Assembly (NCBI GenBank): GCA_003244045.1 | Contig: QHBU01000256.1 | Location: 9,892-73,891, forward strand | DNA length: 64,000 bases | Reading direction: 5' to 3' | Origin: Candidatus Aeolococcus gillhamiae | GTDB taxonomy: Bacteria > Chloroflexota > Dormibacteria > Aeolococcales > Aeolococcaceae | In this document: piece after piece, positions 3,000-33,495 of the stretch | Layout: the number at the start of each line of letters is the position of its first letter | Numbering within the stretch: position 1 is the first letter of the stretch | The notes under the pieces: generated by a model | What the model saw: only the letters and a program-made list of their open reading frames with translations | Databases searched by the model: none | What the model was told of the DNA's origin: nothing | Translations under genes and position numbers: made by a program

Positions 3000-4145
3000 A
3001 TGCCCCAGAACCTCATCGAGCGCCCCTCCGCGAGCACTCCTCTTGACGCGGCGGACGCGCGCCGTGCGCAGCTCCGCGCCATGGCGGCCGCCCTGGTGGA
3101 TGGGCCGCGCATGGGCCGGCGCTTCCACATCCCCGCGGGAGTGCCGCTGGAGCCGTCGCCGCGGCGACGGCACCACGGGCCGCGCCTCCGGCCGCCCGCG
3201 GTCGTACGCCGTCGCGGGCCGATGGTGCGGCGGTTCGTCGCGGGAGCGTTCCTGCTGGGGCAGGTCGGCCTGCTGGCGGCTCTGCTCACCGCACCCACCT
3301 TTACTGTGCACACCGTCGAGGTCACCGGCGACCACCTGCTCAGCCGCGACACCGTCCTCGCCGCCGCGCATGTCCCGCAATCGAGCCTCTTCACCGTCGA
3401 CGGCGACGCCATCCGCGCGCGGATCACCAAGCTTCCCTGGGTGCGCACGGCGACGGTCACAACCCAGCTGCCGTCCACCGTGCGGATCATCGTCACCGAA
3501 TGGCAACCCGACCTGCTGCTCCGCCACGGGACGCAGACCACCTTCGTCGCGGCCAACGGCGCGAGCGTGCCGTTCACCCAGTCGACCGCGGCGGCGCGCA
3601 AGGACGTTCCACTCCTCCTCGACTACCGTCCCGGCAGGCAGCAGCCGCTGCTGAGCGGGCTGGCCGGCCTCCTCGCCAGCGCGTCCCAGCGGTGGCCGTC
3701 GGTATTCGGCTGCAGGGTCAGCGTCTTCGTGATGAGCAACAGCAACGTGCTCTCTGTGTGGTCGAGCACCGGCTGGCAGGCGATCCTCGGCCCGCTCGAC
3801 AGCAACGACGCCCTGGCCGCCATCCCTGGCCAGCTCTCCGTGCTTGCCGCCCTGAAGGGACGGCTCGACTTCAGCCGACCCACCTTCGGCTACGTCGACC
3901 TCGAGAACGCTGCGACACCGGCGATCGGAGGCCATCCAGGTCTGCCCACCAGCCTGCGCGACGACATCGCCGGCAGCGCGCTGCCCACCTCCAACCCCGG
4001 GGTGGCCGTGGCGCCGTCGACGTCGCCCGCCGCCGCCGGTGCCACACCGACACCGGCGCCGACGGCAACCCCGGCCCCCACCCCGCGTCCGACGCCGAGC
4101 CCGCTGGTCCTGAGCCTGCCGCCGCCGCCGACACGGCACGGCTAG
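3000..4145 (+). CDS. ftsQ: Cell division protein FtsQ/DivIB (single TM, POTRA domain, Pro/Thr-rich tail)
   Basis: TM helix followed by FTVHTVEVTG...LPWVRTATVTTQLPSTVRIIVTE POTRA pattern and YVDL; dcw context; start uncertain. Confidence 0.75.
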   Translation: MPQNLIERPSASTPLDAADARRAQLRAMAAALVDGPRMGRRFHIPAGVPLEPSPRRRHHGPRLRPPAVVRRRGPMVRRFVAGAFLLGQVGLLAALLTAPTFTVHTVEVTGDHLLSRDTVLAAAHVPQSSLFTVDGDAIRARITKLPWVRTATVTTQLPSTVRIIVTEWQPDLLLRHGTQTTFVAANGASVPFTQSTAAARKDVPLLLDYRPGRQQPLLSGLAGLLASASQRWPSVFGCRVSVFVMSNSNVLSVWSSTGWQAILGPLDSNDALAAIPGQLSVLAALKGRLDFSRPTFGYVDLENAATPAIGGHPGLPTSLRDDIAGSALPTSNPGVAVAPSTSPAAAGATPTPAPTATPAPTPRPTPSPLVLSLPPPPTRHG

Positions 4146-5035
4146 AAGCTCCGCGTCTCCCAAGGGCGCGCGATCCGCAGCGCGGTGAGGATGGCGCGAG
4201 TCGCCGGCGACCGGTTGAGGGTGATGAAGTGGATCCCCGGCGCGCCACCGCGCAACAGCTCGCTGCACTGCAGCGTCGCCCACGCCACGCCGAGCTGGAG
4301 CACCGCCGCGGCATCGTCGACGCGGGTCTGCAGCGCCTCGCGCAAGGGCGCCGGGATCGACGCCCCGATCTTGGCCGTGAACCGGTACACCTGGTCGACG
4401 TTGGTGATCGGCATGATGCCCGGCACGATGGGCACGGTCACGCCCGCCGCGCGCGCCCGCGCCAGGAAGTCGAAGTACACACGATTATCGAAGAACAGCT
4501 GCGTGATCAGGAGGCTGGCGCCCGCCTGCACCTTCTGCACCGCCGCGGCGACGTCCTGCTCCAGCGAGTGCGACTCGACGTGCTTCTCCGGTGAGCACGC
4601 CGCGACGACGCAGAGGTCGGCCTTGTCATGCAGCAGTCGCACCAGCTCGCTGCCGAAACGGAGGCCACCCGCGCGGGCGACGAACGCACCCTCGCCGTTC
4701 GGTGGGTCGCCGCGGATGGCCAGCACGTTCTCGATCCCGACCGCCTGGTACTGGCGAATCTCGTCGAGAAGGTCGTCGACCGTGGAATCCCGGCAGGTGA
4801 GGTGCGCCATCGGCAGCAGGCCGGTCTCCTCACGAATCCTTTTGACGAAACGGACGGTGCGATCGTCGCGTGCGCTGCCCCCGGCACCGTGGGTCACCGA
4901 GACGAAAGCGGGTTCGAGCTCGCGCAGCGCGGAGATGGTGGCGAACAGGCGATCGGCGCCCTCATCGTCTCGCGGAGGGAAGAACTCGAACGAGAAAAGC
5001 GGTTCCCCACGCGCGAAGAGGCTGTCGATGCGCAT
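4142..5035 (-). CDS. metF: 5,10-methylenetetrahydrofolate reductase
   Basis: FSFEFFPP, FVSVTHGAGG, AHLTC, ITQLFFD, GIHFITLN; start taken at MRIDSLF. Confidence 0.93.
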   Translation of the reverse strand: MRIDSLFARGEPLFSFEFFPPRDDEGADRLFATISALRELEPAFVSVTHGAGGSARDDRTVRFVKRIREETGLLPMAHLTCRDSTVDDLLDEIRQYQAVGIENVLAIRGDPPNGEGAFVARAGGLRFGSELVRLLHDKADLCVVAACSPEKHVESHSLEQDVAAAVQKVQAGASLLITQLFFDNRVYFDFLARARAAGVTVPIVPGIMPITNVDQVYRFTAKIGASIPAPLREALQTRVDDAAAVLQLGVAWATLQCSELLRGGAPGIHFITLNRSPATRAILTALRIARPWETRSF

Positions 5036-5093
5036 CCTCGGATGGTAAGCGCACACCCGGCGATCGGCCGCTGTGATGCTACCGTTGGCGGCC

Positions 5094-6143
5094 GTGCTCG
5101 CAGCTCGCGCGGCCCGATTCGGCGGGGACGATCCCCTCGCCAACCTCGAGCTCGTCGAGGTTCCGGACCCGTCGCCCGGTCCCGGCGAGGTTCTGATCGC
5201 GGTCGGCGCGGCATCGCTCAACCACCACGACCTGTGGACACTGCGCGGTGTCGGTTCACGGCCGCTGACCGAGCCGCAGGTGCTCGGCTGCGACGCCGCG
5301 GGGACGGTGATCGCGTACGGTGAGGGCGCCACGCCGCCAGGCGCACCGCCGGTCGGCTCGGAGGTGGTGGTGCACAGCGTGATGACCTGCGGTCATTGCC
5401 CCGCGTGCCGGTCGGGCGACGAGCTGCACTGCCCGCGGGTCGGCCTGCTCAGCGAACCGCCGTACCCGGGGGCTCTCGCGGAGCTGCTCGTCGTCCCTAT
5501 CGGCAACCTCCTGCCGCTGCCGCCCACCGTCGACCTGGTCAACGCCGCGTGCCTGCCGACGGCGTACCTGACCGCGTACCGGATGCTGTTCGTGCGCGGC
5601 GCTCTCAAACCCGGACAGCGCGTGCTCGTTCACGGGGTCACCGGCGGCGTCGCCAGCGCGGCCATTCTGCTGGGCGCAGCCGCGGGGCTCACCGTCTACG
5701 CCACCTCGCGTGAGGAGGCCAAGCGAGCCGCTGCGCTGGAGCTGGGGGCCTGCGCCGCCTTCAACACCGACCGTGACGCGGTCAAGCAGGTGGTCGCGGC
5801 GAGCCAGGGTGGTGTGGATGCGGTGCTCGACACCGTGGGCGAGGCGACGTGGGACTTCTCGGTGCGCGCGGTCAGGCCCGGCGGGACGGTGGTGGTCTCA
5901 GGAGCGACCAGCGGCCCCAACCCCCCGGCGCAGCTCAACCGCATCTTCTGGCGCCAGCTGACCGTGGCCGGCAGCAGCATGGGAACCCGCGACGAGCTGG
6001 CGCGCGTGGTGGAGCTGTGTGCCACCGGCACCCTGCGGCCGCTGCTCGACTCGGTGCGCCCGCTCGCCGCGGTGGCTTCGGGATTCGCCGCGCTGGCGGC
6101 CGGCGAGCGCCGCGGCAAGCTGGTGCTCCGGCCCCGGGCCTGA
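5094..6143 (+). CDS. Zinc-binding medium-chain dehydrogenase/quinone oxidoreductase
   Basis: SLNHHDLW, LGCDAAG, CGHCPAC...C structural Zn site, GSSMGT; start uncertain (5073-5094). Confidence 0.85.
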   Translation: MLAARAARFGGDDPLANLELVEVPDPSPGPGEVLIAVGAASLNHHDLWTLRGVGSRPLTEPQVLGCDAAGTVIAYGEGATPPGAPPVGSEVVVHSVMTCGHCPACRSGDELHCPRVGLLSEPPYPGALAELLVVPIGNLLPLPPTVDLVNAACLPTAYLTAYRMLFVRGALKPGQRVLVHGVTGGVASAAILLGAAAGLTVYATSREEAKRAAALELGACAAFNTDRDAVKQVVAASQGGVDAVLDTVGEATWDFSVRAVRPGGTVVVSGATSGPNPPAQLNRIFWRQLTVAGSSMGTRDELARVVELCATGTLRPLLDSVRPLAAVASGFAALAAGERRGKLVLRPRA

Positions 6144-6323
6144 GCCGGGTATACAGAGCCGCCCGCCGGTGGGATGATGGCCGGCGCTACGCGGCCCGAC
6201 AGGGGCCCGCGGCCGGCAGGGTCTCGTCCCAAAGGTGCAGTTGGACGGGGCCCTGTTGGATTTAACGGGCGCGTCGCGGGCCCCTGATTGACGCCGTAGC
6301 TACGTTTGGAGCTAAGCCGCCGC

Positions 6324-6371
6324 AGGCAACATCTTGTGGCATACTCCGGCGGCAAACTCAGCATCTTGCGG
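6324..6371 (+). promoter_or_regulatory. Tandem NrdR-box-like operators flanking an extended -10 element
   Basis: AGGCAACATCTTGTGG (6324-6339) and ACTCAGCATCTTGCGG (6356-6371), 32 bp apart, resemble acaCwAtATaTwGtgt; TGnCATACT at 6337-6345; nrdR is two genes downstream of ftsA. Confidence 0.6.
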
Positions 6372-6430
6372 TTTTGCCCCTAACAACCCCTTTCGGAGGG
6401 GGAGGGCTCCGGCTATACTCAGAGGCCAGT

Positions 6431-7669
6431 GTGACCCGTTCTCGCCGCGTCTTTGCACTCGATCTAGGAACGACGAAGGTCTGCTGCGCCATCGCTGAGC
6501 TGGACAGCACCGGGTTGCGTGTCATCGGTGTGGGCGAGGCCGTGTCCCGTGGGATCCGTAAGGGCGCGATCATCGAGATCGATCGCGCCGCCGAGGCGGT
6601 GGCCGAGGCGGTCGACCTGGCCGAACAGATGAGCGGTGTGCCGGTGGACTCCGCAGTGGTCGGCCTGGCCGGCACCAGCATCACCTCGCAGAACTCGCGC
6701 GGGGTCGTGGCCGTGTCCGCGGGACACCGTGAGGTGCGTGACGCCGACGTCACCCGCGCCGTCGAGGCGGCGCGCGCGGTCAGCGTTCCCTCGGACCGAA
6801 AGATCCTCCATGTGCTGCCTCAGCAGTTCACCATCGACGGCCAAGAGGGCGTGCGCGACGCGCTCGGCATGGCCGGTACGCGCCTCGAGGTCGACGCACA
6901 CATCATCACCGGCACCAACACCGCCATCCAGAACGTCATCAAGGTGGTGCACAAGGCGGGGCTCGACGTCGACGACCTCGTGCTCCAGGTGCTCGCCTCC
7001 GCAGAGGCGGTGATCGGCGAGGACGAGCTCGACCGCGGCGTGATCGTCGCCGACATCGGCGGTGGCACCACCGACCTTGCAGTTTTTGCCAAAGGCAGCA
7101 TCATCCACACCGCGGTCATCCCCGTCGGTGGCAACCACGTCAGCGGCGACCTCGCGGTGGGGCTGCGCTGCGACCTCGAGACCGCCGAGGCGACCAAGCG
7201 GGCGTACGGGCACTGCCTGCAGTTGACACTGCCCGCCGACGCAGAGGTGAAGCTGACCCCGATGGGCTACGACGAGCCCGTCAACGTGCCGCAGCGTTTC
7301 CTCGCCGAGATCATCGGTCCGCGCGCGCGTGAGATGGCCCAGCTCATCGCCGAGCAGGTGGAGCAGGCGGGGCCGCCCAGCAGCTTCCCGGGCGGGATCG
7401 TGCTCACCGGTGGCGGCGCGCTCCTGCGCGGCTTCGTCGAGGTGGTCCAGCAGGTGACGGACCTACCCGCGCGGGTCGCCGCACCCATGGGCGTGCACGG
7501 CATGAACGACGAGATCAGCGGGCCACACCACGCCACTGTAGTGGGGCTGCTGCGCTGGGGCGCGCGCGGGCGACTGGGCCGCAGCGTGGACCTGACCGGC
7601 AGGGTGCAGAACGGCAACGGACATCACGTTGGCAGTGGATTTGGACGGTGGTTGCGTGAACTTTTCTGA
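6431..7669 (+). CDS. ftsA: Cell division protein FtsA
   Basis: [32 protein letters not shown]. Confidence 0.95.
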
Positions 7670-7805
7670 ACGGATGAAGTTGTATGGGCTCGACGACGGC
7701 GAGACGCCGCCGGAAAAGCCCGTCAGTCGTGGCAACGATGATGAAACGACGCGTGCGGGGAAGTTTTCGCTGCGTCCGAAGAGTAGGCAGCGTGAGGAGA
7801 CGCAC

Positions 7806-8906
7806 ATGAACGATCTGGACCGGACGTTGGAAGGTAACGCACGCATCAAGGTGGTGGGCGTAGGCGGTGGCGGCAGCAACGCCGTCAACCGCATGATCCA
7901 GAGCCGCCTCAAGGGCGTCGAGTTCATCGCCGTCAACACGGATCACCAGGCGCTGCAGCTGAGCAACGCGCACAAGAAGGTGCGCATCGGTTCCAAGCTG
8001 ACCCGCGGCCTCGGCGCCGGCGGCGATCCTCTGCGCGGCGCTGAGGCGGCCGAGGAGACTCGCGAGGAGCTCACCAAGCTGCTCGAGGACTGCGACATGG
8101 TGTTCGTCACCGCGGGCATGGGCGGCGGCACGGGCACGGGCGCCGCCCCGGCGATCGCCGAGATCGCGCGCGAACAAGGCGCGCTCACCATCGGCGTGGT
8201 CACCAAGCCGTTCAAGTTCGAAGGCCTCAAGCGGCAGCGCGCCGCCGACGACGGCATCGCCAACCTGCAGGGACGCGTCGATACGCTCATCACCATCCCC
8301 AACGAGAGGCTCATGCAGGTGGTCGACAAGCGGACGCCGATCACCGAAGCGTTCAAGCTCGCGGACGACGTGCTCCGCCAGGGTGTCCAGGGGATCAGCG
8401 ACCTGATCGTCTTCCCCGGCCTCATCAACCTCGACTTTGCGGACGTCAAGGCGATCATGTCGGGCCAGGGCGCCGCACTGATGGGGATCGGATTCGGCAA
8501 CGGCGATACCCGGGCTGCCGACGCGGCGCGCGACGCCGTGGCCAGCCCGCTGCTCGAGACCACCATCGCCGGTGCCAAGGGGATCCTCCTCAACGTCACG
8601 GGCGGCCCCGACCTCACCCTCTACGAGGTCAACGAGGCGGCGCAGCTGGTCAGCGAGTCGGCCGATCCCGACGCCCAGATCATCTTCGGCACCGTCATCG
8701 ACGAGCAGATGAAGGGTGAGGTGAAGATCACGGTCATCGCCACCGGGTTCACGGGCCACATCGACGTGCTCGGGACGCTCGCATACGAGCCGGTGGCGCG
8801 CCCGGTGGCCGCCTCGACGCCGGCGTTCACCATCGGTGGCCGCTCCGCAACACCGCCGAACGCGGATGACCTCGACATCCCCGCGTTCCTGCGGGATCGG
8901 CGCTAG
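7806..8906 (+). CDS. ftsZ: Cell division protein FtsZ
   Basis: [25 protein letters not shown]-terminal DIPAFLR; RBS GAGGAG upstream. Confidence 0.98.
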
Positions 8907-8925
8907 AGGGCCAGCAGCCGTCGCA

Positions 8926-8952
8926 GCCGCCCCCCGCGGTTCGGGGGGCGGC
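8926..8952 (+). other. GC-rich stem-loop between ftsZ and nrdR
   Basis: GCCGCCCCCCG-CGGTT-CGGGGGGCGGC, 11-bp perfect stem, no U tract. Confidence 0.6.
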
Positions 8953-8963
8953 CCGCCTACCCC

Positions 8964-9503
8964 ATGAAGTGCCCCTACTGCTCGCAGCCGGAATCCAAGG
9001 TCGTCGATTCGCGCGATTCGGAGACCGGGGAGGCGATCCGCCGCCGCCGCGAATGCCTAGGCTGCGGCAAGCGTTTCACCACATACGAGCGCGTCGAGGC
9101 GGTGCCGCTCTGGGTGGTGAAGAAGGACGGCCGGCGCGAGGAGTTCAACCGCCGGAAGCTGCTTGGTGGCCTGGTCAACGCCTCCACCAAGCGTGACATC
9201 GCCTCAGCGCAGCTCGAGACCATCGTCGAGGACATCGAAAACGCGCTGCGCGGCCGCAACGTCACCGAGGTGCGCAGCCGAGAGGTGGGCGAGATGGTGA
9301 TGCAGCGCCTGCGCAGCCTCGACGAGATCGCCTACGTGCGGTTTGCGTCCGTGTACCGCTCGTTCCGTGACGTCGAGCAGATGCGCGCCACCATCGAGGA
9401 CGTGCTCGCCAATCCACCCGGGACCAGGCCGCCCGATGCGCCACGCCGGCGCCGCCGCGGCGCCGACGACGGCCGTGAGCTGCCTCTCGACATGGGGAAG
9501 TGA
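8964..9503 (+). CDS. nrdR: Transcriptional repressor NrdR
   Basis: MKCPYC...SKVVDSR...IRRRRECLGCGKRFTTYE zinc ribbon, ATP cone, AYVRFASVY. Confidence 0.97.
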   Translation: MKCPYCSQPESKVVDSRDSETGEAIRRRRECLGCGKRFTTYERVEAVPLWVVKKDGRREEFNRRKLLGGLVNASTKRDIASAQLETIVEDIENALRGRNVTEVRSREVGEMVMQRLRSLDEIAYVRFASVYRSFRDVEQMRATIEDVLANPPGTRPPDAPRRRRRGADDGRELPLDMGK

Positions 9504-9537
9504 GCCCGCTCTTCGCGACGACAGCGCAGCACGGCCG

Positions 9538-10248
9538 GTGAGCGAGCCGAGCGCAGCCGAGGTCGCCGAACGACTCGAGAAGGTCCGCGACCGGGTGCGC
9601 CGCGCCGCGGCGGCTGCCGGCCGAGACCCCGCAGGTATCCGCCTGCTCGCGGTCACCAAGGGCCACAGTGTCGACGCGGTCGCGACGGCGGCGTCGCTCG
9701 GGTTGCGCGATATCGGCGAGAGCCGCGTGCAGGAGGCGCAGGGGAAGCGGTCCGCTTTCGCTGGTGGCGATGTGACCTGGCACATGATCGGCCACCTGCA
9801 GCGCAACAAGGCCCGCGCCGCGGCCACGTTGTTCGACGTCGTCCACTCGGTGGACGGCATCGCGCTCGCCGCGGCCCTGGCTCGGCATCGGACTGGCGCG
9901 CCGACCCCCCTGCGCGTGTTCGTGGAGGTGGAACTGACCGGCATCGCCGGCCGCACGGGCGCGACGCCCGACGAGACGCCCGCCCTGCTCGACGAGCTGT
10001 GCGCGCTCGCCGAGCTCGAGGTGGCTGGCCTGATGACCATCGCACCCCCGGGGGCACCGGAGCTCGCCGATGACTGCTTCGCACGGCTGCGTGATCTGCG
10101 CGATGCGCTCCGTGATCGCCAGGGCATGACACTCGACGGTCTCAGCATGGGGATGAGCGACGACTTCGAGATCGCCATCGCCCACGGAGCCACGGTGATC
10201 AGGCTCGGCCGTGTGCTCTTCGGAAACGGCCTGGTGGCGGGGAGATGA
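9538..10248 (+). CDS. yggS: PLP homeostasis protein YggS/PLPBP
   Basis: LLAVTK, GESRVQE, WHMIGHLQRNK, LSMGMSDDF, IRLGR. Confidence 0.93.
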   Translation: MSEPSAAEVAERLEKVRDRVRRAAAAAGRDPAGIRLLAVTKGHSVDAVATAASLGLRDIGESRVQEAQGKRSAFAGGDVTWHMIGHLQRNKARAAATLFDVVHSVDGIALAAALARHRTGAPTPLRVFVEVELTGIAGRTGATPDETPALLDELCALAELEVAGLMTIAPPGAPELADDCFARLRDLRDALRDRQGMTLDGLSMGMSDDFEIAIAHGATVIRLGRVLFGNGLVAGR

Positions 10249-10276
10249 GCGCATCGGCGGCTATCCTGAGACGACC

Positions 10277-10819
10277 ATGATCGACGACGCGGCGCCTGCG
10301 GCCCACCACTCCGCTGTCGTGGCTGAGGTGAGACCGCCCGGCCGCCGCCGCCAGCTCACCGTCCTGCTCGGCACCGCCGTGGTGGTGTTCCTCGTCGATC
10401 ATGTGACCAAGTGGCTGGTGACCCAGAACATTGCGCTCGGCGACCAGGTGCCCGGCAGCGGGCCGATCACCATCCACCACATCGAGAACCGCGGCGCCGC
10501 GTTCGGGCTGTTCCCGCAGATGCAGTTCATTTTCCTGGCCGTCGCCGTCGCGGTGGCCGCCTATATCCTCGTCGCGGGGCGACGCTTCGGCCCCGGGGTG
10601 TTCCCGCAGGTGCTGCTCGGCATGGTTCTCGGCGGAGCGCTCGCCAACGCGGTGGACCGAGTCGTGCAGGGCTACGTCGTCGACTTCATCGACCTGCAGC
10701 GATGGCCGGTCTTCAACGTGGCTGACATGGCCATCGTTCTCGGCATTCTGGTCGGCGTCCTGACCCTGCGGATGGTGCCGGTGCCGGCGGTCCGCGGCGA
10801 CAGCGATCCCTCGACGTGA
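10277..10819 (+). CDS. lspA: Lipoprotein signal peptidase II
   Basis: DHVTK, NRGAAFG, GALANAVDR, VVDFI, FNVAD. Confidence 0.93.
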   Translation: MIDDAAPAAHHSAVVAEVRPPGRRRQLTVLLGTAVVVFLVDHVTKWLVTQNIALGDQVPGSGPITIHHIENRGAAFGLFPQMQFIFLAVAVAVAAYILVAGRRFGPGVFPQVLLGMVLGGALANAVDRVVQGYVVDFIDLQRWPVFNVADMAIVLGILVGVLTLRMVPVPAVRGDSDPST

Positions 10820-11718
10820 GCGGCGTGACCGAAGCGCAGCCAGCATCGGTGCGGCTCGATGTGCGCGTGATGCAGCAGGCGGGGGTGAGCCGCAGCGCGG
10901 CCCAATCGCTCATCGCCGGCGGCCACGTACGCGTCAACGAGGGACCGGCCAAGGCGGGACAGCGAGTTCGACCGGCCGACGAGGTGGTGGTGACCATCCC
11001 CGATGCGCCGCCGGCACCCACCGAGGCCCCCGGACCGGCGGTGCACCTTACGGTGGTCTACGAGGACGAGGCCCTGGCGGTGATTGACAAGCCCGCCGGC
11101 ATGGTGGTGCATCCTGCGCCCGGGCACGCAGCCGGCACGCTTGCCGACGGCCTCCGGCAACGCGGATCCACCTGGTCGCAACTGGGCGGCGAGCAGCGTC
11201 CCGGCATCGTCCACCGGCTTGACCGCGACACCAGCGGCCTGCTTGTCGTGGCCAAGTCGGAGGCAGCCCACCGCTCGCTGTCGCTGCAGCTGCAGCGGCG
11301 CACGCTGGGGCGCGTGTACTGGGCGCTGGTACACGGCTCGTTCCGTGAGGCGACCGGGCGCATCGACGCGCCCATCGGTCGTGACCCCGGCCACCGCCAG
11401 CGCATGGCGGTCGTCGACGAGGGGCGCGCGGCGGTCACCGACTTCGTGGTGATGGAGCGCATGCGTCGCTTCAGCCGCCTCGAGGTGCGCCTGCACACCG
11501 GTCGGACGCATCAGATCCGCGTTCACCTGGCGTCGATCAGCCACCCCATCGCCGGCGACCCGGTGTACGGACGGCGCGGCGACACGATCATCGATCGTCC
11601 CGCCCTGCACGCCCAGCGCATCAGCTTTATCCATCCGGTCAGCGGGGAGCAATGCGAGTTCGAGTCCGCGCCGCCTGACGACCTGCTCGCGGCGCTGGCC
11701 GAGGCGGAGCTCGCTTGA
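10816..11718 (+). CDS. rluD: RluA/RluD family 23S rRNA pseudouridine synthase
   Basis: S4 domain, DKPAGMVVHP, VHRLDRDTSGL, TGRTHQIRVH. Confidence 0.9.
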   Translation: MSGVTEAQPASVRLDVRVMQQAGVSRSAAQSLIAGGHVRVNEGPAKAGQRVRPADEVVVTIPDAPPAPTEAPGPAVHLTVVYEDEALAVIDKPAGMVVHPAPGHAAGTLADGLRQRGSTWSQLGGEQRPGIVHRLDRDTSGLLVVAKSEAAHRSLSLQLQRRTLGRVYWALVHGSFREATGRIDAPIGRDPGHRQRMAVVDEGRAAVTDFVVMERMRRFSRLEVRLHTGRTHQIRVHLASISHPIAGDPVYGRRGDTIIDRPALHAQRISFIHPVSGEQCEFESAPPDDLLAALAEAELA

Positions 11719-12901: not shown

Positions 12902-13567
12902 TTGTCTCGCACGGGCTCGTCGCGGCTCGCCGGCCGCATCGTCGTGGTCACAGCCGGGGGAACACGGGAACCGATCGACCCGGTTCGCTATCTCGGCAAC
13001 CGCAGCAGCGGCAAGATGGGCCACGCCATCGCGGTTGCGGCCGCGGACCGCGGCGCCCAGGTCAGGTTGATCACCACGGTCACGGCCCCGGACGACGAGC
13101 GCATCGCGACGGTGAAGGTGGACACGGCAGCTGAGATGAACACCGCCGTCCGCGCCGCGCTGCCCGGCGCAATGCTGCTGGTCATGGCCGCAGCGGTCGC
13201 CGACTACCGGGTGGCTGAGGTCGCTGCAAAAAAGATGAAGAAACGCGACGCTCTGACGCTCGACCTGGTCCCGACGGTCGACATCCTGCGCTCCCTCGCC
13301 GGCGACCCCTTGGGCGAATCCGTACTGGTGGTGGGCTTCGCCGCCGAGACCGACAACATCGAGGAGAACGCGGTGCGCAAGCTCGCTGAGAAACGCTTGG
13401 ACCTCGTCGTTCTCAACGACGTCTCGCGCGCGGACATCGGCTTGGGCAGCCACGACAATGAGGTTCGGGTTTTCGACTCCGGTGGCCTGGTCGCGCACCT
13501 TGAGAAGCGCGCCAAGCCATTGGTCGCCAGTGCGCTGCTCGACCTCATCGAGAAGCGCCTGAGCTGA
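12902..13567 (+). CDS. coaB: Phosphopantothenate--cysteine ligase (CoaB half of coaBC)
   Basis: TAGGTREPIDPVRYLGNRSSGKMG, AAAVADY, VGFAAET; same frame as coaC after one TGA. Confidence 0.88.
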   Translation: MSRTGSSRLAGRIVVVTAGGTREPIDPVRYLGNRSSGKMGHAIAVAAADRGAQVRLITTVTAPDDERIATVKVDTAAEMNTAVRAALPGAMLLVMAAAVADYRVAEVAAKKMKKRDALTLDLVPTVDILRSLAGDPLGESVLVVGFAAETDNIEENAVRKLAEKRLDLVVLNDVSRADIGLGSHDNEVRVFDSGGLVAHLEKRAKPLVASALLDLIEKRLS

Positions 13568-23880: not shown

Positions 23881-23901
23881 TTGGCTTCAGAATTGGCTTC
23901 A
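23881..23901 (+). repeat. Integrase arm-type tandem repeat (left)
   Basis: TTGGCTTCA-GAA-TTGGCTTCA; counterpart at 33437-33457. Confidence 0.75.
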
Positions 23902-25077
23902 CCCGTCGGCTGTCCTGCGCCCGGTCAGAGCCGCCTCCAGTCGGTCGGCGGCGTCTCGAAGCACTGCCGTTCGGACGTGCGTGTACGTCTCGAGGGTGAC
24001 TGCGGTTGTCGAGTGCCCAAGCATCTCGCTGATTGTTTTCGGTTCGACACCAAGCGAGAACAGGAAGGACGCTGCGGAGTGCCGCAGGTCGTGGAACCGC
24101 ACGCGCGGAACGCCGCCGCGGATCAGCAGCGCTTCGTACGCGCGACGGAAGCTGGTGATGGCCAATGCCCGGCCGTGAGGGCCGGTGAACACCAGGTCCG
24201 CCCCGGGCTCCGGTCCGTCCCACAGCCGTCCCGCCGCCAGCCTCTCCTCCGCCTGGCGTGCGCGCTGAGCCCGCAGGGCGACGACGGCAACGTTGACCAG
24301 AGGCAGACCTCGCTGCTTGCTCGCTCGTCGTTTTGGGGACGAGTAGATCGCGTCTGGCGACTCTTGTCCGCCCAAGGCGCGGCGCGAAGCCCTGGTGCGT
24401 GTTCGTAGCACGCGATATTCACGCCGTTCTAGATCCACATCTGTCCAACGCAGACCGAGGAGCTCGCCTCGTCGTCGGCCGGTAGTGAGCGCCAGCACCC
24501 ACATTGCCGCGAATGGATCCGCACCTGCAGCGATCAGAAGGCGGCCCGCCTGCTCCTCGTCGAGAGTGGTGATTTCCGTGTCTGCTCGACGCGGCACGGA
24601 CACCAGGCTCGCGGGATTGCGCGAGATGAGTCCGTCGCGCACGGCGTCCGCCAACGCTCGGTGCAATGTCGTCTGGAAATGTCCGACCGTTGTCGGCGAC
24701 CACCGGCCGCTCGCGAGCTTACGTCCCTGCCACGCGACTATATCGAGACGGCGCAGTCGGGACAGGCGCATATGCCCGAGATCGGGTATCAAGTGAACGC
24801 GGATGTGGCCCTCGAAGCTGTCCCACGCCGAGGGCTTGATCGTCCCGCGCATCCCCTCGATCCAGCGGAACAGGAAGTCGCGAAGGAGCACGCGGTCGTC
24901 GGGCACGTCCTCACCCTTCTTCAGTGCGGCGATCGCCGCGAACATGCGGGCTACCACGTCGGCGCGCGTCCGACCGTAGAAGTGCTTGCGGCGACCGTCG
25001 GAGAGGCTGACACGGGCTACCCAGCGCCCGCGGTAGCGTCCGACTGTTCCCTCGCCGTTGCCGCGCCTTCCTGCCAC
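23899..25077 (-). CDS. int: Tyrosine recombinase/integrase
   Basis: RRGNGEGT arm-binding N-terminus, TGRRRGELLGL (R), FHDLRH, LGHS...TY catalytic residues. Confidence 0.95.
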   Translation of the reverse strand: MAGRRGNGEGTVGRYRGRWVARVSLSDGRRKHFYGRTRADVVARMFAAIAALKKGEDVPDDRVLLRDFLFRWIEGMRGTIKPSAWDSFEGHIRVHLIPDLGHMRLSRLRRLDIVAWQGRKLASGRWSPTTVGHFQTTLHRALADAVRDGLISRNPASLVSVPRRADTEITTLDEEQAGRLLIAAGADPFAAMWVLALTTGRRRGELLGLRWTDVDLERREYRVLRTRTRASRRALGGQESPDAIYSSPKRRASKQRGLPLVNVAVVALRAQRARQAEERLAAGRLWDGPEPGADLVFTGPHGRALAITSFRRAYEALLIRGGVPRVRFHDLRHSAASFLFSLGVEPKTISEMLGHSTTAVTLETYTHVRTAVLRDAADRLEAALTGRRTADG

Positions 25078-25087
25078 GCTTTGAAGC

Positions 25088-25327
25088 CTACGCCTCGCCC
25101 GGCGGTGCCATGAGGGCCGATACGTACGCCTCGAGATCCTCCACGCGGATGCGGGTGAGGTGTCCGAGTTTTACGACCTGCAGCCGGCCTCGGCCGACCT
25201 CGCGGTAGAGGCTGCTCCTGCTCACTTGCAGTCGGTCCGCGGCCTGGCACATCGTCAGGAGCAGAGGGAAGTCGGGGCGAACGAACAATGCCGCTGTCCT
25301 GTCAGAGATCGCGCTCGAGTCGGACAC
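25088..25327 (-). CDS. xis: Excisionase-like helix-turn-helix protein
   Basis: LLLTMCQAADRLQVSRSSLYREVGRGRL...RIRVEDLEAY; immediately upstream of int. Confidence 0.85.
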   Translation of the reverse strand: MSDSSAISDRTAALFVRPDFPLLLTMCQAADRLQVSRSSLYREVGRGRLQVVKLGHLTRIRVEDLEAYVSALMAPPGEA

Positions 25328-25481
25328 GTCTGTACCGGCACTCCCATAGGTAGTAGCTTTGGATGGAGAAGCGCTTCAACTCTCATAACCCTCCGCTGGG
25401 CCGGCCATCGGACACATCGAGGCGAGGGACCTCCTCGCCCTCGGGTTCGGCGGTGCTGCCCGCCTTGGCTGTCGAGCGCCA

Positions 25482-26195
25482 CTACATCGACTTCCTACGC
25501 TTCTGAAACGCCCTCACGTCGGCTGCCGACAGCGCGAACCACTCGCTGGTCCCCAGCCGCGCGTCCGCAAACCGCCGATGCCAGTAGCTCTCGATTCCAG
25601 TGATATCGTCCGTTTCTATCTTGTGAATGACAACGTGCGGGTGAGGGAGTTGGATCGCAAACTGCCGCGACCGCTGGCCCAACCTCTTGGTCTTGCCGAT
25701 CTTGTACTGGTGACCCGACTTGATGAGGTAAACGACGCCGCTGTCGGTGATGGTCTCTACCGTACGTCTGGCGTCGACGCTCACAGAGTTCTGAATCAGT
25801 GGCCAGACATCGGCACAGTCTTCCCGGCCACGACAGTACTCGACCACAATCGTCCTGACAGCATTGGTGCCACCGAAACGTCGGACAGTTTCGACGCTTG
25901 GAAAGGTCGCGTCACTCCGCCGCTCGATGCTCCAGTCGCGCCAGGTTGGGTAACGACCCAAACGGCGAGCCAGATCGACAATGCTGGCCGCAACGAAGGA
26001 GCGCGTATATGAGGCATGGGGCACATTGGGCTCGAAGCCTGCCTCGCTAAGCGCGTCACCCCACCGTGCCCAATAGTGGCTCCAGGTGTGAGGTGTTATC
26101 CCCGTTGCCTTCTCGAACGAGCGGTAGCCCAGTGGCCGACCGTCATTCGCCGCGGCGGTTCGACGTACCTCAGCTAGAATGCGTTGCCGGTCCAT
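25482..26195 (-). CDS. GIY-YIG (T5orf172/MUG113-like) nuclease with N-terminal homing-endonuclease-associated repeats
   Basis: GVVYLIKSGHQYKIGKT...IESYWHRRF...SEWF; N-terminus with WARWGDALSEAG and LGRYPT...FPS...RRFG repeats. Confidence 0.8.
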   Translation of the reverse strand: MDRQRILAEVRRTAAANDGRPLGYRSFEKATGITPHTWSHYWARWGDALSEAGFEPNVPHASYTRSFVAASIVDLARRLGRYPTWRDWSIERRSDATFPSVETVRRFGGTNAVRTIVVEYCRGREDCADVWPLIQNSVSVDARRTVETITDSGVVYLIKSGHQYKIGKTKRLGQRSRQFAIQLPHPHVVIHKIETDDITGIESYWHRRFADARLGTSEWFALSAADVRAFQKRRKSM

Positions 26196-26258
26196 TATTC
26201 AGCCCGGTAGGGTACCGCGATGCTCCCCGAGATTTTCGCGCAGTAAACTCGGGCGATC

Positions 26259-26915
26259 GTGAAGGATGGCAGCCCGTTGGGTCAACGCGACGATCTGTTG
26301 GCGGAGATCGCCGATTACGTACTGCCGATCCTCAAGCCCTATCAACTTTCGCTGTACCTCTATCTGCTGCGGCGCAGTCAAGTAGCCGGGCACCCATTCG
26401 TTCGGGTGGGCAAGCGAACCATTGGCGTTGGTTTGGGGAAGAGTACAAGGTCTTCGCAGAGCAACTACCAGCACATCGGCGAGCAACTCAATGGGTTGGC
26501 GGAACTCGGCTTTCTTGTCATCGGTGATGTAACGCGCGAAGGGACACTCTACGAAGTTCGCCTACCTCGGGCGGTACCGGCGGTACGTGAGCTGCTGGCC
26601 CTCAGCGCCGATACCGCTCCTGAGTCCGTCGATCACTACCACTCGCCAGAACTGCGGCGAGCTCTCTTCGAGCGCGATCACTGGACTTGTCATTACTGCG
26701 CGGAAGTCGTCAATGAGAGCAACGCGACTTTGGATCACCTCGTCCCGGTTTCCGGCCTAGGCGACAACTCACCCTCCAACCTCGTCACCGCCTGTCTCGA
26801 ATGTAATTCGATCAAGTCCGGTCGGACCTATGAGGAGGCGGCGGCCGGCATCCTGGCGTCTGTCCGCAGGCGCAGGCTTGCTGGTGGAACGACGCTCGAC
26901 CCCGATCTCATATAG
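26259..26915 (+). CDS. HNH endonuclease with N-terminal winged-helix domain
   Basis: FERDHWTCHYC...TLDHLVPVS...NLVTACLECNSIK; N-terminal LYLYLLRRS...L-AELGF wHTH-like pattern. Confidence 0.85.
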   Translation: MKDGSPLGQRDDLLAEIADYVLPILKPYQLSLYLYLLRRSQVAGHPFVRVGKRTIGVGLGKSTRSSQSNYQHIGEQLNGLAELGFLVIGDVTREGTLYEVRLPRAVPAVRELLALSADTAPESVDHYHSPELRRALFERDHWTCHYCAEVVNESNATLDHLVPVSGLGDNSPSNLVTACLECNSIKSGRTYEEAAAGILASVRRRRLAGGTTLDPDLI

Positions 26916-26995
26916 GTCGCACGCCTTCCTGCGCCGAGATCTGGAAGGTTGTCCTACGCCCTGACTGGGGCGCGGATTACAGCCGCGAAGCTGGC

Positions 26996-27262
26996 CTAGG
27001 GGTGGCGACTCCGTCGGCGGCGCACGTCGACAACGCGCGCAACGTAAAGGGTCCGATGGCGCTCGGTGTAGTAGACCCCTTGAGGGGGGACCGGCCAGTA
27101 GCGCCGGCCGGGGCGCACCTCCGGACCCAGTGCGAAACCGGCCTCGGCCATCCATTCCATCGTGTTCACGACGGCCTCTGCCTGCCCCGGGGCGCGCTCG
27201 TGAAGCTGCTCGAGGTACCGTAGCGCGCTGTCCGACCAACTCAGCCTGAACGGCGTCGGCAA
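26996..27262 (-). CDS. RelE/ParE-like type II toxin
   Basis: FRLSWSDSALRYLEQL...GVYY...LYVARVVDVRR; 88 aa, basic, 2 nt downstream of an acidic partner. Confidence 0.65.
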   Translation of the reverse strand: MPTPFRLSWSDSALRYLEQLHERAPGQAEAVVNTMEWMAEAGFALGPEVRPGRRYWPVPPQGVYYTERHRTLYVARVVDVRRRRSRHP

Positions 27263-27264
27263 CG

Positions 27265-27483
27265 CTAGACGAGCTCGTCCGTGGGCGGCGTAGCGTCGGG
27301 CGGCGGCAAACCCAAACGCCGTCGGACATCCTCAGTCGAGTGCAGCTCCGACGCGGGAATCTGGCCGGCGTCGAGCCGTCGTTCGAACTCCTCGAGATCG
27401 GCGCTGAGGGCGGCGTCATCCTCCAGGAGCTCGAGCCCTTCCGCCTGGATCGGGTCAACGGGCTCGTGTCGATGGGTGGCCAT
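27265..27483 (-). CDS. Putative antitoxin (72 aa, acidic)
   Basis: LEEFERRLDAGQ...HSTEDVRRRLGL resembles antitoxin C-termini; upstream of toxin. Confidence 0.6.
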   Translation of the reverse strand: MATHRHEPVDPIQAEGLELLEDDAALSADLEEFERRLDAGQIPASELHSTEDVRRRLGLPPPDATPPTDELV

Positions 27484-27718
27484 GGGGCCACCGTACCACG
27501 GCCAGCAGTGACCCACTATGCCACCTCGTCGCCATCCACTCGAGCGGTCCCCGTTCGGCCATTCTGTGGTCGTCCGGCATCTCCCGGGGCGCCGCACTCA
27601 CGGTCGGCGCTCCCGACCTGGTGACGCTTGAGAGCCACCATTGGCAGCGCCGACTCCGTCGAACCCCGAGGTGGTCAACGGACTCAGACGGTTCAGCTAG
27701 ACTGCCGCCCCAGTGCCA

Positions 27719-28522
27719 ATGGGACACAACCGGGTGGGGCGGGCCGCCGTACTCGGTTTGCTCGCATCCGCCATGGCTGCCTGTGGCGGCGGAACCACCT
27801 CGGGGACTCCGAACACCGCGGGTAGCGCCGTCCCCTCTGGTGGAGCGTCTGCGTCCGCGCCTGCGGCGCAGCCGACGAAGTCCCAGTACCTGGCCGGAAC
27901 CGCAGCCCCAGTTTTTCCAGCAGGATCGCCGAATCAACTTGCTGTGGTCGCTCAAGCGGGCCTCACTCTGCCGGTACCGAGCGGCGGGGAACCGGTGCCG
28001 ATTGCCGTGCGGAATAACACGACTCGGACGGTGACGCACGTCACGGCGTCCGGGACCGTCCACGACAGTACGGGCAAGCCCGTCGCTACAGGCTCAGACC
28101 AAGGTTTTCATCCGGCCCTTCTTGAGCCCGGGCAGTTCGCGCTTGGGTTTATCTATCTGGGCGTGGGCACCAGCGTCCCCAGCGGGTCCACGCTGTCGGT
28201 GCAGGCGACGGCGACCCCAAGTGCTGGGCCAAACACATACTTCGCCGACTTGCTGGTGACCGAGGTGAATGACACCGGTCAGCAGATCGTTGGAACGGTA
28301 AAGAATCCGCGCGACCACGCGGTTACTGCGCCGTATAGCGTCGACGTTTTCTGCGTGGATTCATCGGGCACCCTGCTAAACGAATTCGGCGGGTTCGCTG
28401 ACGTCAGTACCGACCTAGCCGCCGGGGGGACCTCCCCGTTTACGGTCAGCCTCTACGGGTCGCAGTGCGCTCAGTTCCTAATCGGAGCCAGCGGGTACGA
28501 CATGACAGCGGCGGGGAACTAA
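27719..28522 (+). CDS. Lipoprotein with FxLYD-like beta-sandwich domains
   Basis: Lipobox MAAC-GG, Ser/Ala-rich linker, VRNNT and GTVKNP...LAAGGTSPF repeats. Confidence 0.7.
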   Translation: MGHNRVGRAAVLGLLASAMAACGGGTTSGTPNTAGSAVPSGGASASAPAAQPTKSQYLAGTAAPVFPAGSPNQLAVVAQAGLTLPVPSGGEPVPIAVRNNTTRTVTHVTASGTVHDSTGKPVATGSDQGFHPALLEPGQFALGFIYLGVGTSVPSGSTLSVQATATPSAGPNTYFADLLVTEVNDTGQQIVGTVKNPRDHAVTAPYSVDVFCVDSSGTLLNEFGGFADVSTDLAAGGTSPFTVSLYGSQCAQFLIGASGYDMTAAGN

Positions 28523-28609
28523 CGAGCCGTCGGCATCAAAACGTTTCCTGGACGCTCCCGGCGAAGCCAGCTGGATCTCATGAGCCTTGAGCCGCGCGAG
28601 AGCAAGTTC

Positions 28610-29305
28610 TCAGTAGGCTTGCCGGAACGGCGGATCGTCAGGCTTCCTCGGCAAGATGGGCCTCGCGAGCCGGGCTGCATCAAGAATTGATTGGGCATCA
28701 ATGTGATGTCGCGTTACCTCGATGCCGAATTGGGGCCATTCACAGACAAAACCTACTTCCCCGGGTGAGGGAAGTGGCCAGACCCAGAACATGGAATCGG
28801 CGGTCCACATGGTGCCGTCTTCGGACCGTACGGCGCTGCCGTGCCCCGGCTCGAGGTACCGCGTCTCTCCAGGGCGCGGGTCCATAGGTGGGCGCAGGTT
28901 GTGCGCTCTGGAGCCGTCCGAGAACTCAACGCTCAAGCGCAGGACGTCGTCTGCCAGGTCATATGGATCCTTCCCTTCTCGACCGCGGAGGCCTGCCAGT
29001 CCGAACATCGGGTCCCATACGTTCACTTCCTCGGTGAGGACCGCATAAGCGACGACCTGGAATTCGAAGCCGGTGGGGAATGCACTGAAGTGTTGGACCT
29101 GCACCGCGGCAGCGTCCGACTGAGCCAGGAGGAAGTTGATACTCAGCGGCGAACCCAAAACGCGTTCGGGCCGTCCCCACGGGTGCTGCCTGTCATCGGT
29201 GAACGTCACGTCACGTCCATTCTGCGTCTTCCGATTCGCCCGAGTGAGATCGGTGATCCCGATCAGCGTGTTGGTTCCCTCCTGACCCAAGTCACACATT
29301 TCCAC
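28610..29305 (-). CDS. Hypothetical protein
   Basis: Long ORF with structured-looking sequence (AFPTGFEF, LSVEFSDG, FWVWPLP, VCEWP); start uncertain. Confidence 0.6.
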   Translation of the reverse strand: MEMCDLGQEGTNTLIGITDLTRANRKTQNGRDVTFTDDRQHPWGRPERVLGSPLSINFLLAQSDAAAVQVQHFSAFPTGFEFQVVAYAVLTEEVNVWDPMFGLAGLRGREGKDPYDLADDVLRLSVEFSDGSRAHNLRPPMDPRPGETRYLEPGHGSAVRSEDGTMWTADSMFWVWPLPSPGEVGFVCEWPQFGIEVTRHHIDAQSILDAARLARPILPRKPDDPPFRQAY

Positions 29306-29399
29306 CGGCCGGTGTGTTCATGACCTGATGCGTCCGATCGGCGCCCGCTCGGCGGGTGTTGTAGGACGTGGACAAGCGCGGAGCCGGCCGCACGCCGGG

Positions 29400-32300: not shown

Positions 32301-32453
32301 GGGCAGCTGCGCGCGCGACCGGGCTCGGCCGAGAAGGAGCTGGCCATGCAGGCCGAAGAGGCTCGGAGACGGCGCCGCCTCGAGCACAATCTCCATCACG
32401 ACCACCACGCCCCGGCGCATACGACGCAGAGCCCGGGCCGCGGAATCGGATGA
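29400..32453 (+). CDS. MOBF (TrwC/TraA-like) relaxase fused to RecD-like SF1 helicase
   Basis: DYY, FDVTFSLPKSVS, HRTAR, DPQLHTH, GAAGTGKT, DECSM, GDSAQL, YALTAHRAQG, YVALSR. Confidence 0.93.
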   Translation: MISIGNVVSVSDGARYFQEAVAESPADYYAARGEAAGVWRGQAAAELGLNGPVRREDFVRILDGRHPTTGDELGRHYAARKNVAFDVTFSLPKSVSLLYALGDDHMRAIVLLALDAGATAAHEYLEEHAAWGRIANPQNRAIEHVRAQLVTATFVHRTARPVTRDGVITVDPQLHTHLVVASFAKRANGTWGQLHGQQLYAHAAAAGAIGQATTRDVLVRELGLRVRTNPNGTFELEGFTPEQLAEFSQRHQQARAAAGAAGVTSYDGMKVAVLASRESKSAVAPGTDHFEQWRDRAATLGLTPRSVRDLLDQEQLRDLRWFDVDTAQAVIGRDEGGLTAQTSVFSRRDLIRSLAAHTPLGMRREQIEELADAILADPAVTTPMVPAQREGESPGEAMDRWRDRGMELHYSTPEVVELERRMLRSAVLRDQERTLVIDGGHVRTAVAAIGSQLTKDQRDMVLGVCTSTAGVVVVEGAAGTGKTTAVRLIRNIHADLGVSVVGCAPSNRAAVTLGEEAGVTAVTTASLLGRLRDGQHLARGGLVIADECSMLGPDLAELVIRAEQDGAKLVLIGDSAQLQPIHGGALFRSLGDALGRISLTDVVRQRESWDREVLMALRAGDAAPLVRRYLDEGRVHHCPDEASRVATIAADWVAATTEGHEVITIARERAAVAELNAVTREAAVDAGLVGRTGVHRVSTDQVGHKTMPLGELEFAVGDRVLLVGRTQRHRGLVKGLRGTVVETAADGTLCLETAEKRRLTVPPRYAGVAHGYALTAHRAQGATADIVLVHGSDAADRHWHYVALSRHRLRAAYYDVASQPRDTEGVHHGPPVDASWTDQALIASMERDDAKPSTLDYPAAYDRQLVETCPSTDPTAGRGVAPTERQLELLRLNGLLEELPPAATWIHASLVVDRLFGNPAGESAQRWLTKGGTPPDEAGRAVAMAMQDVAASRGRSCIRDSRSGVMDGQLRARPGSAEKELAMQAEEARRRRRLEHNLHHDHHAPAHTTQSPGRGIG

Positions 32454-32505
32454 CGGAGGGGTGCTAGCGCTCACGCGCGTCGTGAACGCCCCGCCGAGGG
32501 CACCT

Positions 32506-32654
32506 CTAGTCGCGCCGATCCCGGTCCCGCTGACTTTCGCGTACCTGCGTCATCGGACGCGACTGCTTTGGCAGTTCCGCAGGCGCTCTGGGCGGCACTG
32601 CCGGTGACTTCGGCGGCTGACCTTCGGGGGTGGGGGAGGCGCCGCGCCGGCCAC
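32506..32654 (-). CDS. Pro-rich micropeptide 2 (coupled GTG out of frame; in-frame GTG at 32598 gives 30 aa)
   Basis: PPRAPAELPKQSRPMTQVRES paralogous to micropeptide 1, with mostly synonymous codon differences. Confidence 0.55.
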
Positions 32655-32788
32655 TACTTCTTTTCGATCTTGTCGGCCCCGAGGCCCTTGCGCACGGTGA
32701 GCATCGGGTAATCGCGTTTGGGCAACTCGGATGGCGCGCGAGGGGGTTTCGATGGTTGGGGCGGGGCGGGCGATGCGCGGCTGGCCAT
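32654..32788 (-). CDS. Pro-rich micropeptide 1 (44 aa, MASRASPAPPQPSKPPRAPSELPKRDYPMLTVRKGLGADKIEKK)
   Basis: ATG 4 nt after the stop of the upstream membrane gene; paralog immediately downstream; below ORF-track cutoff. Confidence 0.7.
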   Translation of the reverse strand: MASRASPAPPQPSKPPRAPSELPKRDYPMLTVRKGLGADKIEKK

Positions 32789-32792
32789 GGGC

Positions 32793-33335: not shown

Positions 33336-33341
33336 AGACCC

Positions 33342-33370
33342 AGTCTAGCCGATGAACGAACGTATGTTTG
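33342..33370 (-). promoter_or_regulatory. LexA (SOS) box plus -10 element, probable leaderless promoter
   Basis: CGAACGTATGTTTG (33357-33370) fits GAAC-N4-GTTY; TAGACT on minus strand at 33347-33342, 7 nt before GTG at 33335. Confidence 0.6.
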
Positions 33371-33436
33371 TGCATGCGGCTCCATCGGTCTCGAGCATCA
33401 GCGGACCCGCGCGACCCAGCCGTCGTCGACACCGCG

Positions 33437-33457
33437 TTGGCTTCAAAATTGGCTTCA
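33437..33457 (+). repeat. Integrase arm-type tandem repeat (right)
   Basis: TTGGCTTCA-AAA-TTGGCTTCA. Confidence 0.75.
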
Positions 33458-33495
33458 GGGGCCGCCCAGGGGAACCGTTTTCGTATTCAAAACGG

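Follow-up and report, generated by a model that had tools for sequence, protein, structure and literature searches.

Predicted NrdR boxes upstream of the ftsA-ftsZ-nrdR genes are conserved among relatives of Candidatus Aeolococcus gillhamiae

NrdR is described as a repressor specific for ribonucleotide reductase (RNR) genes (PMC9110341, PMC12051234), and it often controls its own transcription (PMC9110341). According to published accounts, an NrdR site consists of two 16-bp partly palindromic boxes, and a single box is left unbound (PMC13584703, PMC12051234). Within a box, the critical positions are C4 and G13; A6 and T11 also matter, A8 and T9 are usually present, and at least 63% of the bases between C4 and G13 are A or T (PMC13584703). 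The linker between the boxes is free in sequence, with lengths of 15-17 bp binding best and 24-27 bp being tolerated (PMC13584703, PMC12051234). The ATP-dATP and ADP-dATP forms of NrdR bind DNA, while the ATP-only form does not (PMC12176259). Here we describe a pair of predicted NrdR boxes in front of the cell division genes ftsA and ftsZ, which are followed by nrdR, in a 64,000-nucleotide stretch of Candidatus Aeolococcus gillhamiae (contig QHBU01000256.1, positions 9,892 to 73,891; hereafter the window). The whole 64-kb window has a G+C content of 69%.

The closest described relative of this locus is the nrdRJ site of S. coelicolor, where two 16-bp partly palindromic boxes with a 15-bp linker precede an autoregulated operon that holds nrdR. 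Box sequences at the two loci are very similar (TCCCCACATCTAGTGG in S. coelicolor and AGGCCACATCTTGTGG in relatives of the window). The two loci differ in that nrdR is co-transcribed with an RNR gene in S. coelicolor, whereas here it follows ftsA-ftsZ and the operon and the window contain no RNR gene; in addition, the boxes described here lie upstream of the best conserved -10-like element. On balance, we think it probable that the pair is a genuine two-box NrdR operator repressing an ftsA-ftsZ-nrdR operon, so that nrdR is autoregulated and ftsA and ftsZ are carried along. The observations behind this reading are the sequence of the boxes, their geometry, their conservation, the gene order and an intact NrdR.

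The initial annotation of the window had noticed two 16-mers, 32 bp apart, and had called them NrdR boxes. Both are read in the window, together with the following linker and flank:

6324-6339, no strand assigned: predicted NrdR box 1, AGGCAACATCTTGTGG, with all six key positions and rank 1 in the position weight matrix (PWM) scan
6340-6355, no strand assigned: inter-box linker of 16 bp, its length kept at 15-17 bp in relatives
6356-6371, no strand assigned: predicted NrdR box 2, ACTCAGCATCTTGCGG, with five of the six key positions
6372-6377, + strand: conserved T-rich flank TTTTGC, 3' of box 2, with an information content of 1.3-1.9 bits per column

The box starts are separated by 32 bp, which gives the 16-bp linker, and both boxes lie upstream of ftsA. 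Box 1 has C4, A6, A8, T9, T11 and G13 (6/6 key positions) and is identical to the published synthetic consensus ACACAACATCTAGTGG at 13/16 positions. Box 2 has C4, A8, T9, T11 and G13, with G at position 6 (5/6 key positions). In either box C4 and G13 are separated by 8 bp, of which 6/8 (75%) are A or T in box 1 and 5/8 (63%) in box 2, so that neither falls below the published minimum of 63%. The window pair thus agrees with the published description of NrdR sites in having two boxes, C4 and G13, a sufficient A+T content and a linker of favourable length (16 bp), and the earlier designation of the 16-mers as predicted NrdR boxes is in accord with these rules. The TTTTGC flank is possibly an UP-element-like tract.

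Scoring with a PWM points the same way; its only input was a set of ten boxes from E. coli and S. coelicolor, listed with measured NrdR binding in Table 1 of PMC13584703. Box 1 ranks first in the window (14.8 bits) and box 2 eighteenth (6.5 bits), and the pair reaches a score of 21.3, compared with 11.2 for the runner-up pair in the window. None of 200 dinucleotide shuffles reaches 21.3 (maxima with a mean of 8.0, a standard deviation of 2.9 and a largest value of 19.5). The initial annotation had used an AT-rich consensus, ACACWATATATWGTGT, to which box 1 matches at 11/16 and box 2 at 10/16 positions. A match of at least 10/16 is reached at 11 of 63,985 window positions (best strand), with box 1 as the top score, and the ftsA-site pair is the sole pair in the window with at least 10/16 in each box at 31/32 bp or the other spacings tried. 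The mismatches to ACACWATATATWGTGT fall mostly at non-critical positions, as in the high-G+C boxes of Streptomyces.

Two further candidates were rejected. The runner-up PWM pair (13319-13366) lies inside the coding sequence of coaB and scores no higher (11.2) than some of the shuffles, which makes a coincidence of coding sequence probable; a rule-based pair like it occurs at the matching place (near 14919) in two related loci, L038 and L051. A box-like 16-mer at 6455-6470 (PWM rank 7) falls in the conserved ALDLGT codons of ftsA.

To compare related loci, genome contigs were searched with FtsA, which yielded 79 loci with FtsA identities of 70-98%. Most are labelled Candidatus Dormibacterota or Dormibacteria, and the rest carry different or generic labels; the phylum of the window is named Candidatus Dormiibacterota. 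Two loci (L071 and L079) were left out as the 5' end of ftsA is missing, and 77 loci were examined for boxes. In all 77, the best-scoring pair lies 105-110 nt 5' of the ftsA start. The initial annotation had made its proposal depend on conservation in related genomes, and the boxes are indeed found at the same position in every relative examined. The linker measures 16 bp in 72 loci, 15 bp in two and 17 bp in three. A strict rule (C4, G13, at least three of A6, A8, T9 and T11, at least 5/8 A+T, and a spacing of 31/32 bp) is passed by the window and by 73/77 loci, the misses being three loci with a 17-bp linker (L029, L040 and L063) and L064, where position 4 of box 1 is G. Elsewhere in the 1.2 Mb of window and loci, the same rule finds few pairs (in L038 and L051, with extra neighbours in L005 and L065). 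A published search expression, C.[AT].[AT][AT].[AT].G with a 20-23 nt spacer, matches the ftsA site in 21/77 relatives and only two other sites in 1,138,412 bases.

The pairs at the ftsA sites of the phylum follow a CAACATnTTGTG-type motif. Column statistics were calculated from 67 distinct sequences; 5/72 were omitted, having been scored at a 15-bp linker, and three of these five truly have a 17-bp linker. In box 1, the columns C4, A6, A8, T9, T11 and G13 hold 1.8-2.0 bits, compared with 0.7-0.9 bits at positions 1-3, 10 and 16; C4 is present in 66/67 and G13 in 67/67 sequences. In box 2, C4, A8, T9, T11 and G13 are each present in 67/67, and position 6 is G, A or T, with A6 in 15/67. The positions in the middle of the linker (23-28) are variable (0.35-0.93 bits), and conservation reaches past box 2, with GCAA on its 5' side and TTTTGC on its 3' side. 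Read from these columns, the pattern of invariant and variable positions in both predicted boxes is that of the NrdR logo.

The divergent lineage L065 has, in addition, a third NrdR-like box, CCCCCATATCTGGTGG, which starts 41 bp 5' of box 1 (region 7853-7941). The resulting linker of 25 bp corresponds to the alternative four-turn NrdR spacing (PMC12051234).

The genes downstream of the boxes are arranged as follows:

6431-7669, + strand: ftsA (TIGR01174, 401.8 bits)
7674-8906, + strand: ftsZ (open reading frame (ORF) 7629-8906; alternative start at 7806; TIGR00065, 438 bits; Tubulin and FtsZ_C domains)
8926-8952, + strand: hairpin between ftsZ and nrdR, with a perfect 11-bp G+C stem, a 5-nt loop and no T tail
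8964-9503, + strand: nrdR (TIGR00244, 195.5 bits)
9538-10248, + strand: gene for a yggS/ylmE-like pyridoxal phosphate-binding protein (start inferred; Pfam Ala_racemase_N)

This layout is the one given by the initial annotation, with nrdR 3' of ftsZ and no RNR gene in the operon; none of the 55 window ORFs scanned (10 + 41 + 4) contains an RNR domain. The encoded NrdR retains the Zn ribbon cysteines, the ATP-cone, and Asp15 and Arg17 (the alignment shows ...VVDSR...), which are DNA-contacting residues of NrdR (PMC13584703). Its residues 1-148 align with the solved structures from E. coli (9fzf, E=1.6e-36) and S. coelicolor (7p37, E=2.4e-31). Among the relatives, nrdR lies 3' of ftsZ in 69/79 loci; nine contigs end too early, and in one locus, L035, unrelated sequence follows ftsZ. 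From ddl to priA the related loci share a conserved gene order, and the spacer between ftsZ and nrdR measures 21-198 nt (n=65).

The ftsA ORF could be extended to TTG 6374, but 1-nt indels within 6374-6430 in relatives speak against coding there, and this longer form was rejected. For ftsZ there are two candidate starts, ATG 7674, located 4 nt past the ftsA stop, and ATG 7806, which has GAGGAG in front of it. Among relatives, the interval 7670-7805 differs in length mostly by multiples of 3 and keeps an M-x-x-Y-G-L-D motif. This coding-like behaviour makes 7674 the probable start of ftsZ and would imply an N-terminal extension of FtsZ of ~44 residues.

The hairpin between ftsZ and nrdR ends 11 nt before the nrdR start; its role may be in attenuation or in stabilising the transcript. 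Comparable hairpins are present in relatives of the window's clade, and those of L009 and L013 have a T-rich tail, like a partial terminator before nrdR. The initial annotation had regarded a separate promoter for nrdR, with ftsA unaffected, as incompatible with its proposal, and there is no room for one between the hairpin and the nrdR start. The promoter word TAnnnT, which occurs about once per kb on the + strand of the window, is absent before ftsZ, nrdR (260 nt scanned) and yggS, and a terminator scan of 6000-10400 found no terminator-like site on the + strand; co-transcription is therefore likely. A scan of the same interval with the sigma-70 consensus returned no promoters; these two scans say little for a genome of 69% G+C. 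The yggS-like gene is followed on the same strand by lspA, rluD, gmk and coaBC, with small gaps or overlaps. The operon probably runs from nrdR into yggS and beyond, and it may continue through lspA, rluD, gmk and coaBC.

Three candidate promoter elements lie around the boxes:

6337-6345, + strand: clade-specific extended -10-like element TGGCATACT that spans the junction of box 1 and linker; a possible distal promoter
6391-6396, + strand: putative -35-like hexamer TTTCGG, 17 bp upstream of TATACT
6414-6419, + strand: -10-like hexamer TATACT, conserved across the phylum

An alignment of 22 of 78 upstream regions, a diverse selection, shows conservation at box 1, at box 2 and its short flanks, at a CCTT block and at GGCTAYACT. 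The CCTT block stands at a fixed distance in this alignment, and at the -35-like hexamer some relatives have TTGAAG or TTGTGC. TA[TC]A[CG]T is present in 77/78 sequences, 11-15 nt before the start codon. The distance from box 2 to TAYACT is 40-43 nt (41 or 42 nt in 74/78), although the intervening sequence varies. Because this hexamer is found phylum-wide at 40-43 bp 3' of box 2, the boxes appear to lie upstream of the likely core promoter. The word GCTAYAMT, taken as a marker of promoters in general, was uninformative (2 matches compared with 1.03 expected). The initial annotation had further placed the boxes astride an extended -10 element. This element is present in the window, but it is no general feature of the site: linker positions 17-22 read CATACT in roughly 47-54/67 distinct sequences, with CGTCCC, TGGGCC or similar words in other clades.

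Together, these features suggest a possible mode of regulation. We infer that NrdR binds the pair, that the genes are co-transcribed, that the effect is repression rather than activation, and that it may have a physiological consequence, possibly on septation. With dATP plus ATP or ADP bound, NrdR would form a DNA-binding tetramer on both boxes, three helical turns apart, and its binding would reduce transcription into the operon. In the window's clade, bound NrdR would occlude the inter-box extended -10-like element, and it would also hinder the phylum-wide promoter, the -10-like TATACT of which lies 42 bp 3' of box 2. NrdR with ATP alone would come off the DNA. The result would be negative autoregulation of nrdR, and through an operon headed by ftsA the division genes would share the nucleotide and energy signal that controls ribonucleotide reductase. 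Because the forms with dATP and ATP or ADP bind DNA and the form with ATP alone does not, the operon would be off at low energy or at a dATP level that is high for the demand. It is tempting to extend this to the Dormibacterota as a whole, with ftsA and ftsZ as true members of the NrdR regulon and one sensor of dATP versus ATP/ADP setting both precursor synthesis and division capacity, but this wider proposal is tentative and we hold it to be somewhat doubtful.

Several observations weigh against a repressing NrdR operator at ftsA. Box 2 carries G6, and the A6G change, when present in both boxes of published sites, lowers the affinity of S. coelicolor NrdR 4-fold and that of the E. coli protein 10-fold, without abolishing binding (PMC13584703). 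No window site lies within three mismatches of the AT-rich consensus ACACWATATATWGTGT, and the published search expression finds no pair in the window, missing the one at the ftsA site because position 6 of box 2 is G. The locus counts are not independent events, because one phylum with a conserved gene order is sampled and few clades dominate it, and the conservation evidence for the motif in this phylum covers the regions upstream of ftsA, not its nrd genes. If transcription starts ~7 nt past TATACT, the box centres would be near -62 and -94 and would not overlap the core promoter; NrdR sites are described as overlapping the site of RNA polymerase (PMC13584703, PMC9110341). The inter-box extended -10 is confined to the window's clade and one large clade and is absent in several clades, and promoters may lie within the coding sequence of ftsA or ftsZ. 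Finally, L035 has intact boxes and no nrdR within ~680 nt after the ftsZ stop (10515-11194); its tail has 52% G+C compared with 68% elsewhere and could stem from a rearrangement or from chimerism at the contig end.

One alternative, which we consider unlikely, keeps the boxes as NrdR sites and assigns them to a minor distal promoter that feeds nrdR by read-through, with most transcription of ftsA and ftsZ coming from TATACT or internal promoters and being little affected, so that division would not truly be coupled. The conserved -10-like hexamer is found 40-43 nt 3' of the boxes, with no overlap, and a distal box pair of unclear role is described at Listeria nrdAB (PMC12051234). Since nrdR is in the operon at every informative locus, selection could work via nrdR alone, and selection for nrdR autoregulation is inseparable from selection for control of ftsA and ftsZ. 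However, clades that lack the inter-box -10 hold both boxes at the same distance from TAYACT, which argues that the boxes work with the proximal promoter; moreover, the probable ftsZ start 4 nt past the ftsA stop leaves no intergenic promoter, and TAnnnT is missing before both ftsZ and nrdR. A different possibility, and one that we judge quite improbable, is that NrdR acts as an activator, with box centres near -62 and -94 facing the same side of the helix and a weak -35 in the promoter, so that the division genes go up when dATP is plentiful. The -35-like hexamer is weak, the likely positions of the boxes resemble those of upstream-bound activator sites, and topA of P. aeruginosa has been reported as activated by NrdR (PMC4409342). 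On the other hand, NrdR is known as a repressor, activation would mean positive autoregulation of nrdR, the positions rest on a presumed start site, and the main NrdR laboratory doubts the topA case, in which there is a single box (PMC12051234).

The 16-mers could also serve another factor or be part of a promoter architecture (-35-like TTGTGG/TTGCGG, UP element), their likeness to NrdR boxes being coincidental. Conservation of GCAA before and TTTTGC after box 2 would fit this explanation, as would the fact that the motif is known from the sequence of ftsA loci and not from the RNR genes of the phylum. Against it, the column pattern of both boxes mirrors the NrdR logo, the linker of 15-17 bp is the NrdR optimum, and no -10-like hexamer lies 16-18 bp downstream of TTGTGG or TTGCGG. 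An RNA hairpin around box 2 (GCAAAC...GTTTTGC) is likewise unsupported, since linker position 31 and flank position +4 do not covary and C at flank +4 coexists with A at linker position 31. An Rfam search of 6100-6460 gave no match, its sole hit (E = 9.6) not being credible. We regard this explanation as very unlikely. Finally, each box has 5-6 mismatches to the AT-rich consensus, as a chance match in a 64-kb window might; with the pair score unreached by any of the shuffles and boxes in every locus examined, chance is rejected and we give it a negligible probability. The repressing NrdR operator is thus the reading that we favour.

Between the dehydrogenase gene and the NrdR boxes lies a further conserved element, a small RNA (sRNA)-like gene at 6150-6263 on the + strand. 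It ends in the following feature:

6217-6263, + strand: terminator-like hairpin with a T-rich tail, at the end of the sRNA-like element 6150-6263

This hairpin probably closes the upstream transcription unit and insulates the ftsA promoter region. The candidate promoter of the element consists of a -35-like TATACA (6150-6155) and, 17 bp further along, TG with GATGAT (6170-6178; most relatives have TGCTACGGT). Hairpins are found at about 6191-6210 and at 6217-6255, the second with a conserved loop, AAGGTGCAGT, and the T-rich tail. In 65/78 sources the loop word is found no more than 2.5 kb upstream of ftsA; 64 of these have a hairpin of -15 kcal/mol or better and 61 the promoter-like word. Compensatory changes are seen at 5/18 hairpin pairs among 20 chosen sequences. 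Rfam has no family for the element, and the complement of its loop, CTGCACCT, gave 3 matches compared with 2.4 expected and thus no target lead.

Upstream of the operon (3000-6143) are an ftsQ-like gene, metF on the opposite strand, and a gene for a Zn-dependent dehydrogenase/quinone oxidoreductase. The ftsQ-like gene is thus parted from ftsA by metF and the dehydrogenase gene, and the same interruption is seen in most related loci that are long enough. Further along the window, a likely integrated mobile element (23899-33865) adjoins a transfer-messenger RNA (tmRNA) gene (33496-33865, - strand). It encodes a tyrosine integrase (23899-25077, - strand), HNH and T5orf172-type nucleases, and a TrwC relaxase/helicase (29328-32453). 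The third-position G+C of its ORFs is 0.68-0.77, lower than the values of about 0.85-0.90 elsewhere.

We found no report of NrdR boxes before ftsA or ftsZ in a literature search that did not cover Rodionov and Gelfand 2005 or RegPrecise, and the site lists of the surveys may include the locus. A 2026 survey looked solely upstream of RNR operons (PMC13584703); a 2022 survey searched whole genomes and may therefore list the ftsA site (PMC9110341). If the proposed coupling is true, the NrdR regulon would be widened to cell division, and the ftsA site would be the first non-RNR target of NrdR with the full two-box architecture. Replication precursors and energy charge would then gate septation through simple control of transcription, in effect a direct switch from energy and deoxynucleoside triphosphates to septation in slow-growing, dormancy-prone soil bacteria of an uncultured phylum. 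If the boxes serve only nrdR autoregulation, the site would be a modest addition to NrdR biology. Since NrdR proteins bind heterologous boxes (PMC13584703) and an E. coli reporter assay for NrdR has been described (PMC12051234), the coupling idea could be tested in vitro without culture.

Other known systems share parts of this arrangement. The topA gene of P. aeruginosa, the one non-RNR target of NrdR proposed in the literature consulted, resembles ftsA and ftsZ as a non-RNR gene, in this case of DNA metabolism, under proposed NrdR control (PMC4409342). It differs from the ftsA site, which has the full two-box architecture, by its single box and apparent activation, and it has been questioned as an NrdR target because NrdR needs two boxes (PMC12051234). 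In Clostridium, the order ftsA-ftsZ / spoIIGA-sigE-sigG-ylmC-nrdR likewise places nrdR just past the ftsA-ftsZ end of the division cluster (PMC6362236). There, however, nrdR belongs to a separate putative operon with sporulation sigma factor genes, the passage on this gene order mentions no NrdR boxes before ftsA, and repression of division by NrdR in sporulation is only speculated (PMC6362236). The E. coli nrdHIEF, nrdDG and nrdAB sites follow the same box logic with a linker of 15-16 bp and are bound by the ATP-dATP or ADP-dATP tetramer, whereas their AT-rich boxes overlap RNR promoters and nrdR is not described as part of those operons. LexA/SOS-type systems induce inhibitors of FtsZ, such as SulA and YneA, after DNA damage. 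They resemble the proposed ftsA-ftsZ-nrdR control in bringing a DNA-related signal into FtsZ-dependent division, but here it is the pools of adenine nucleotides and deoxynucleotides that would act, and they would do so on the transcription of ftsA and ftsZ.

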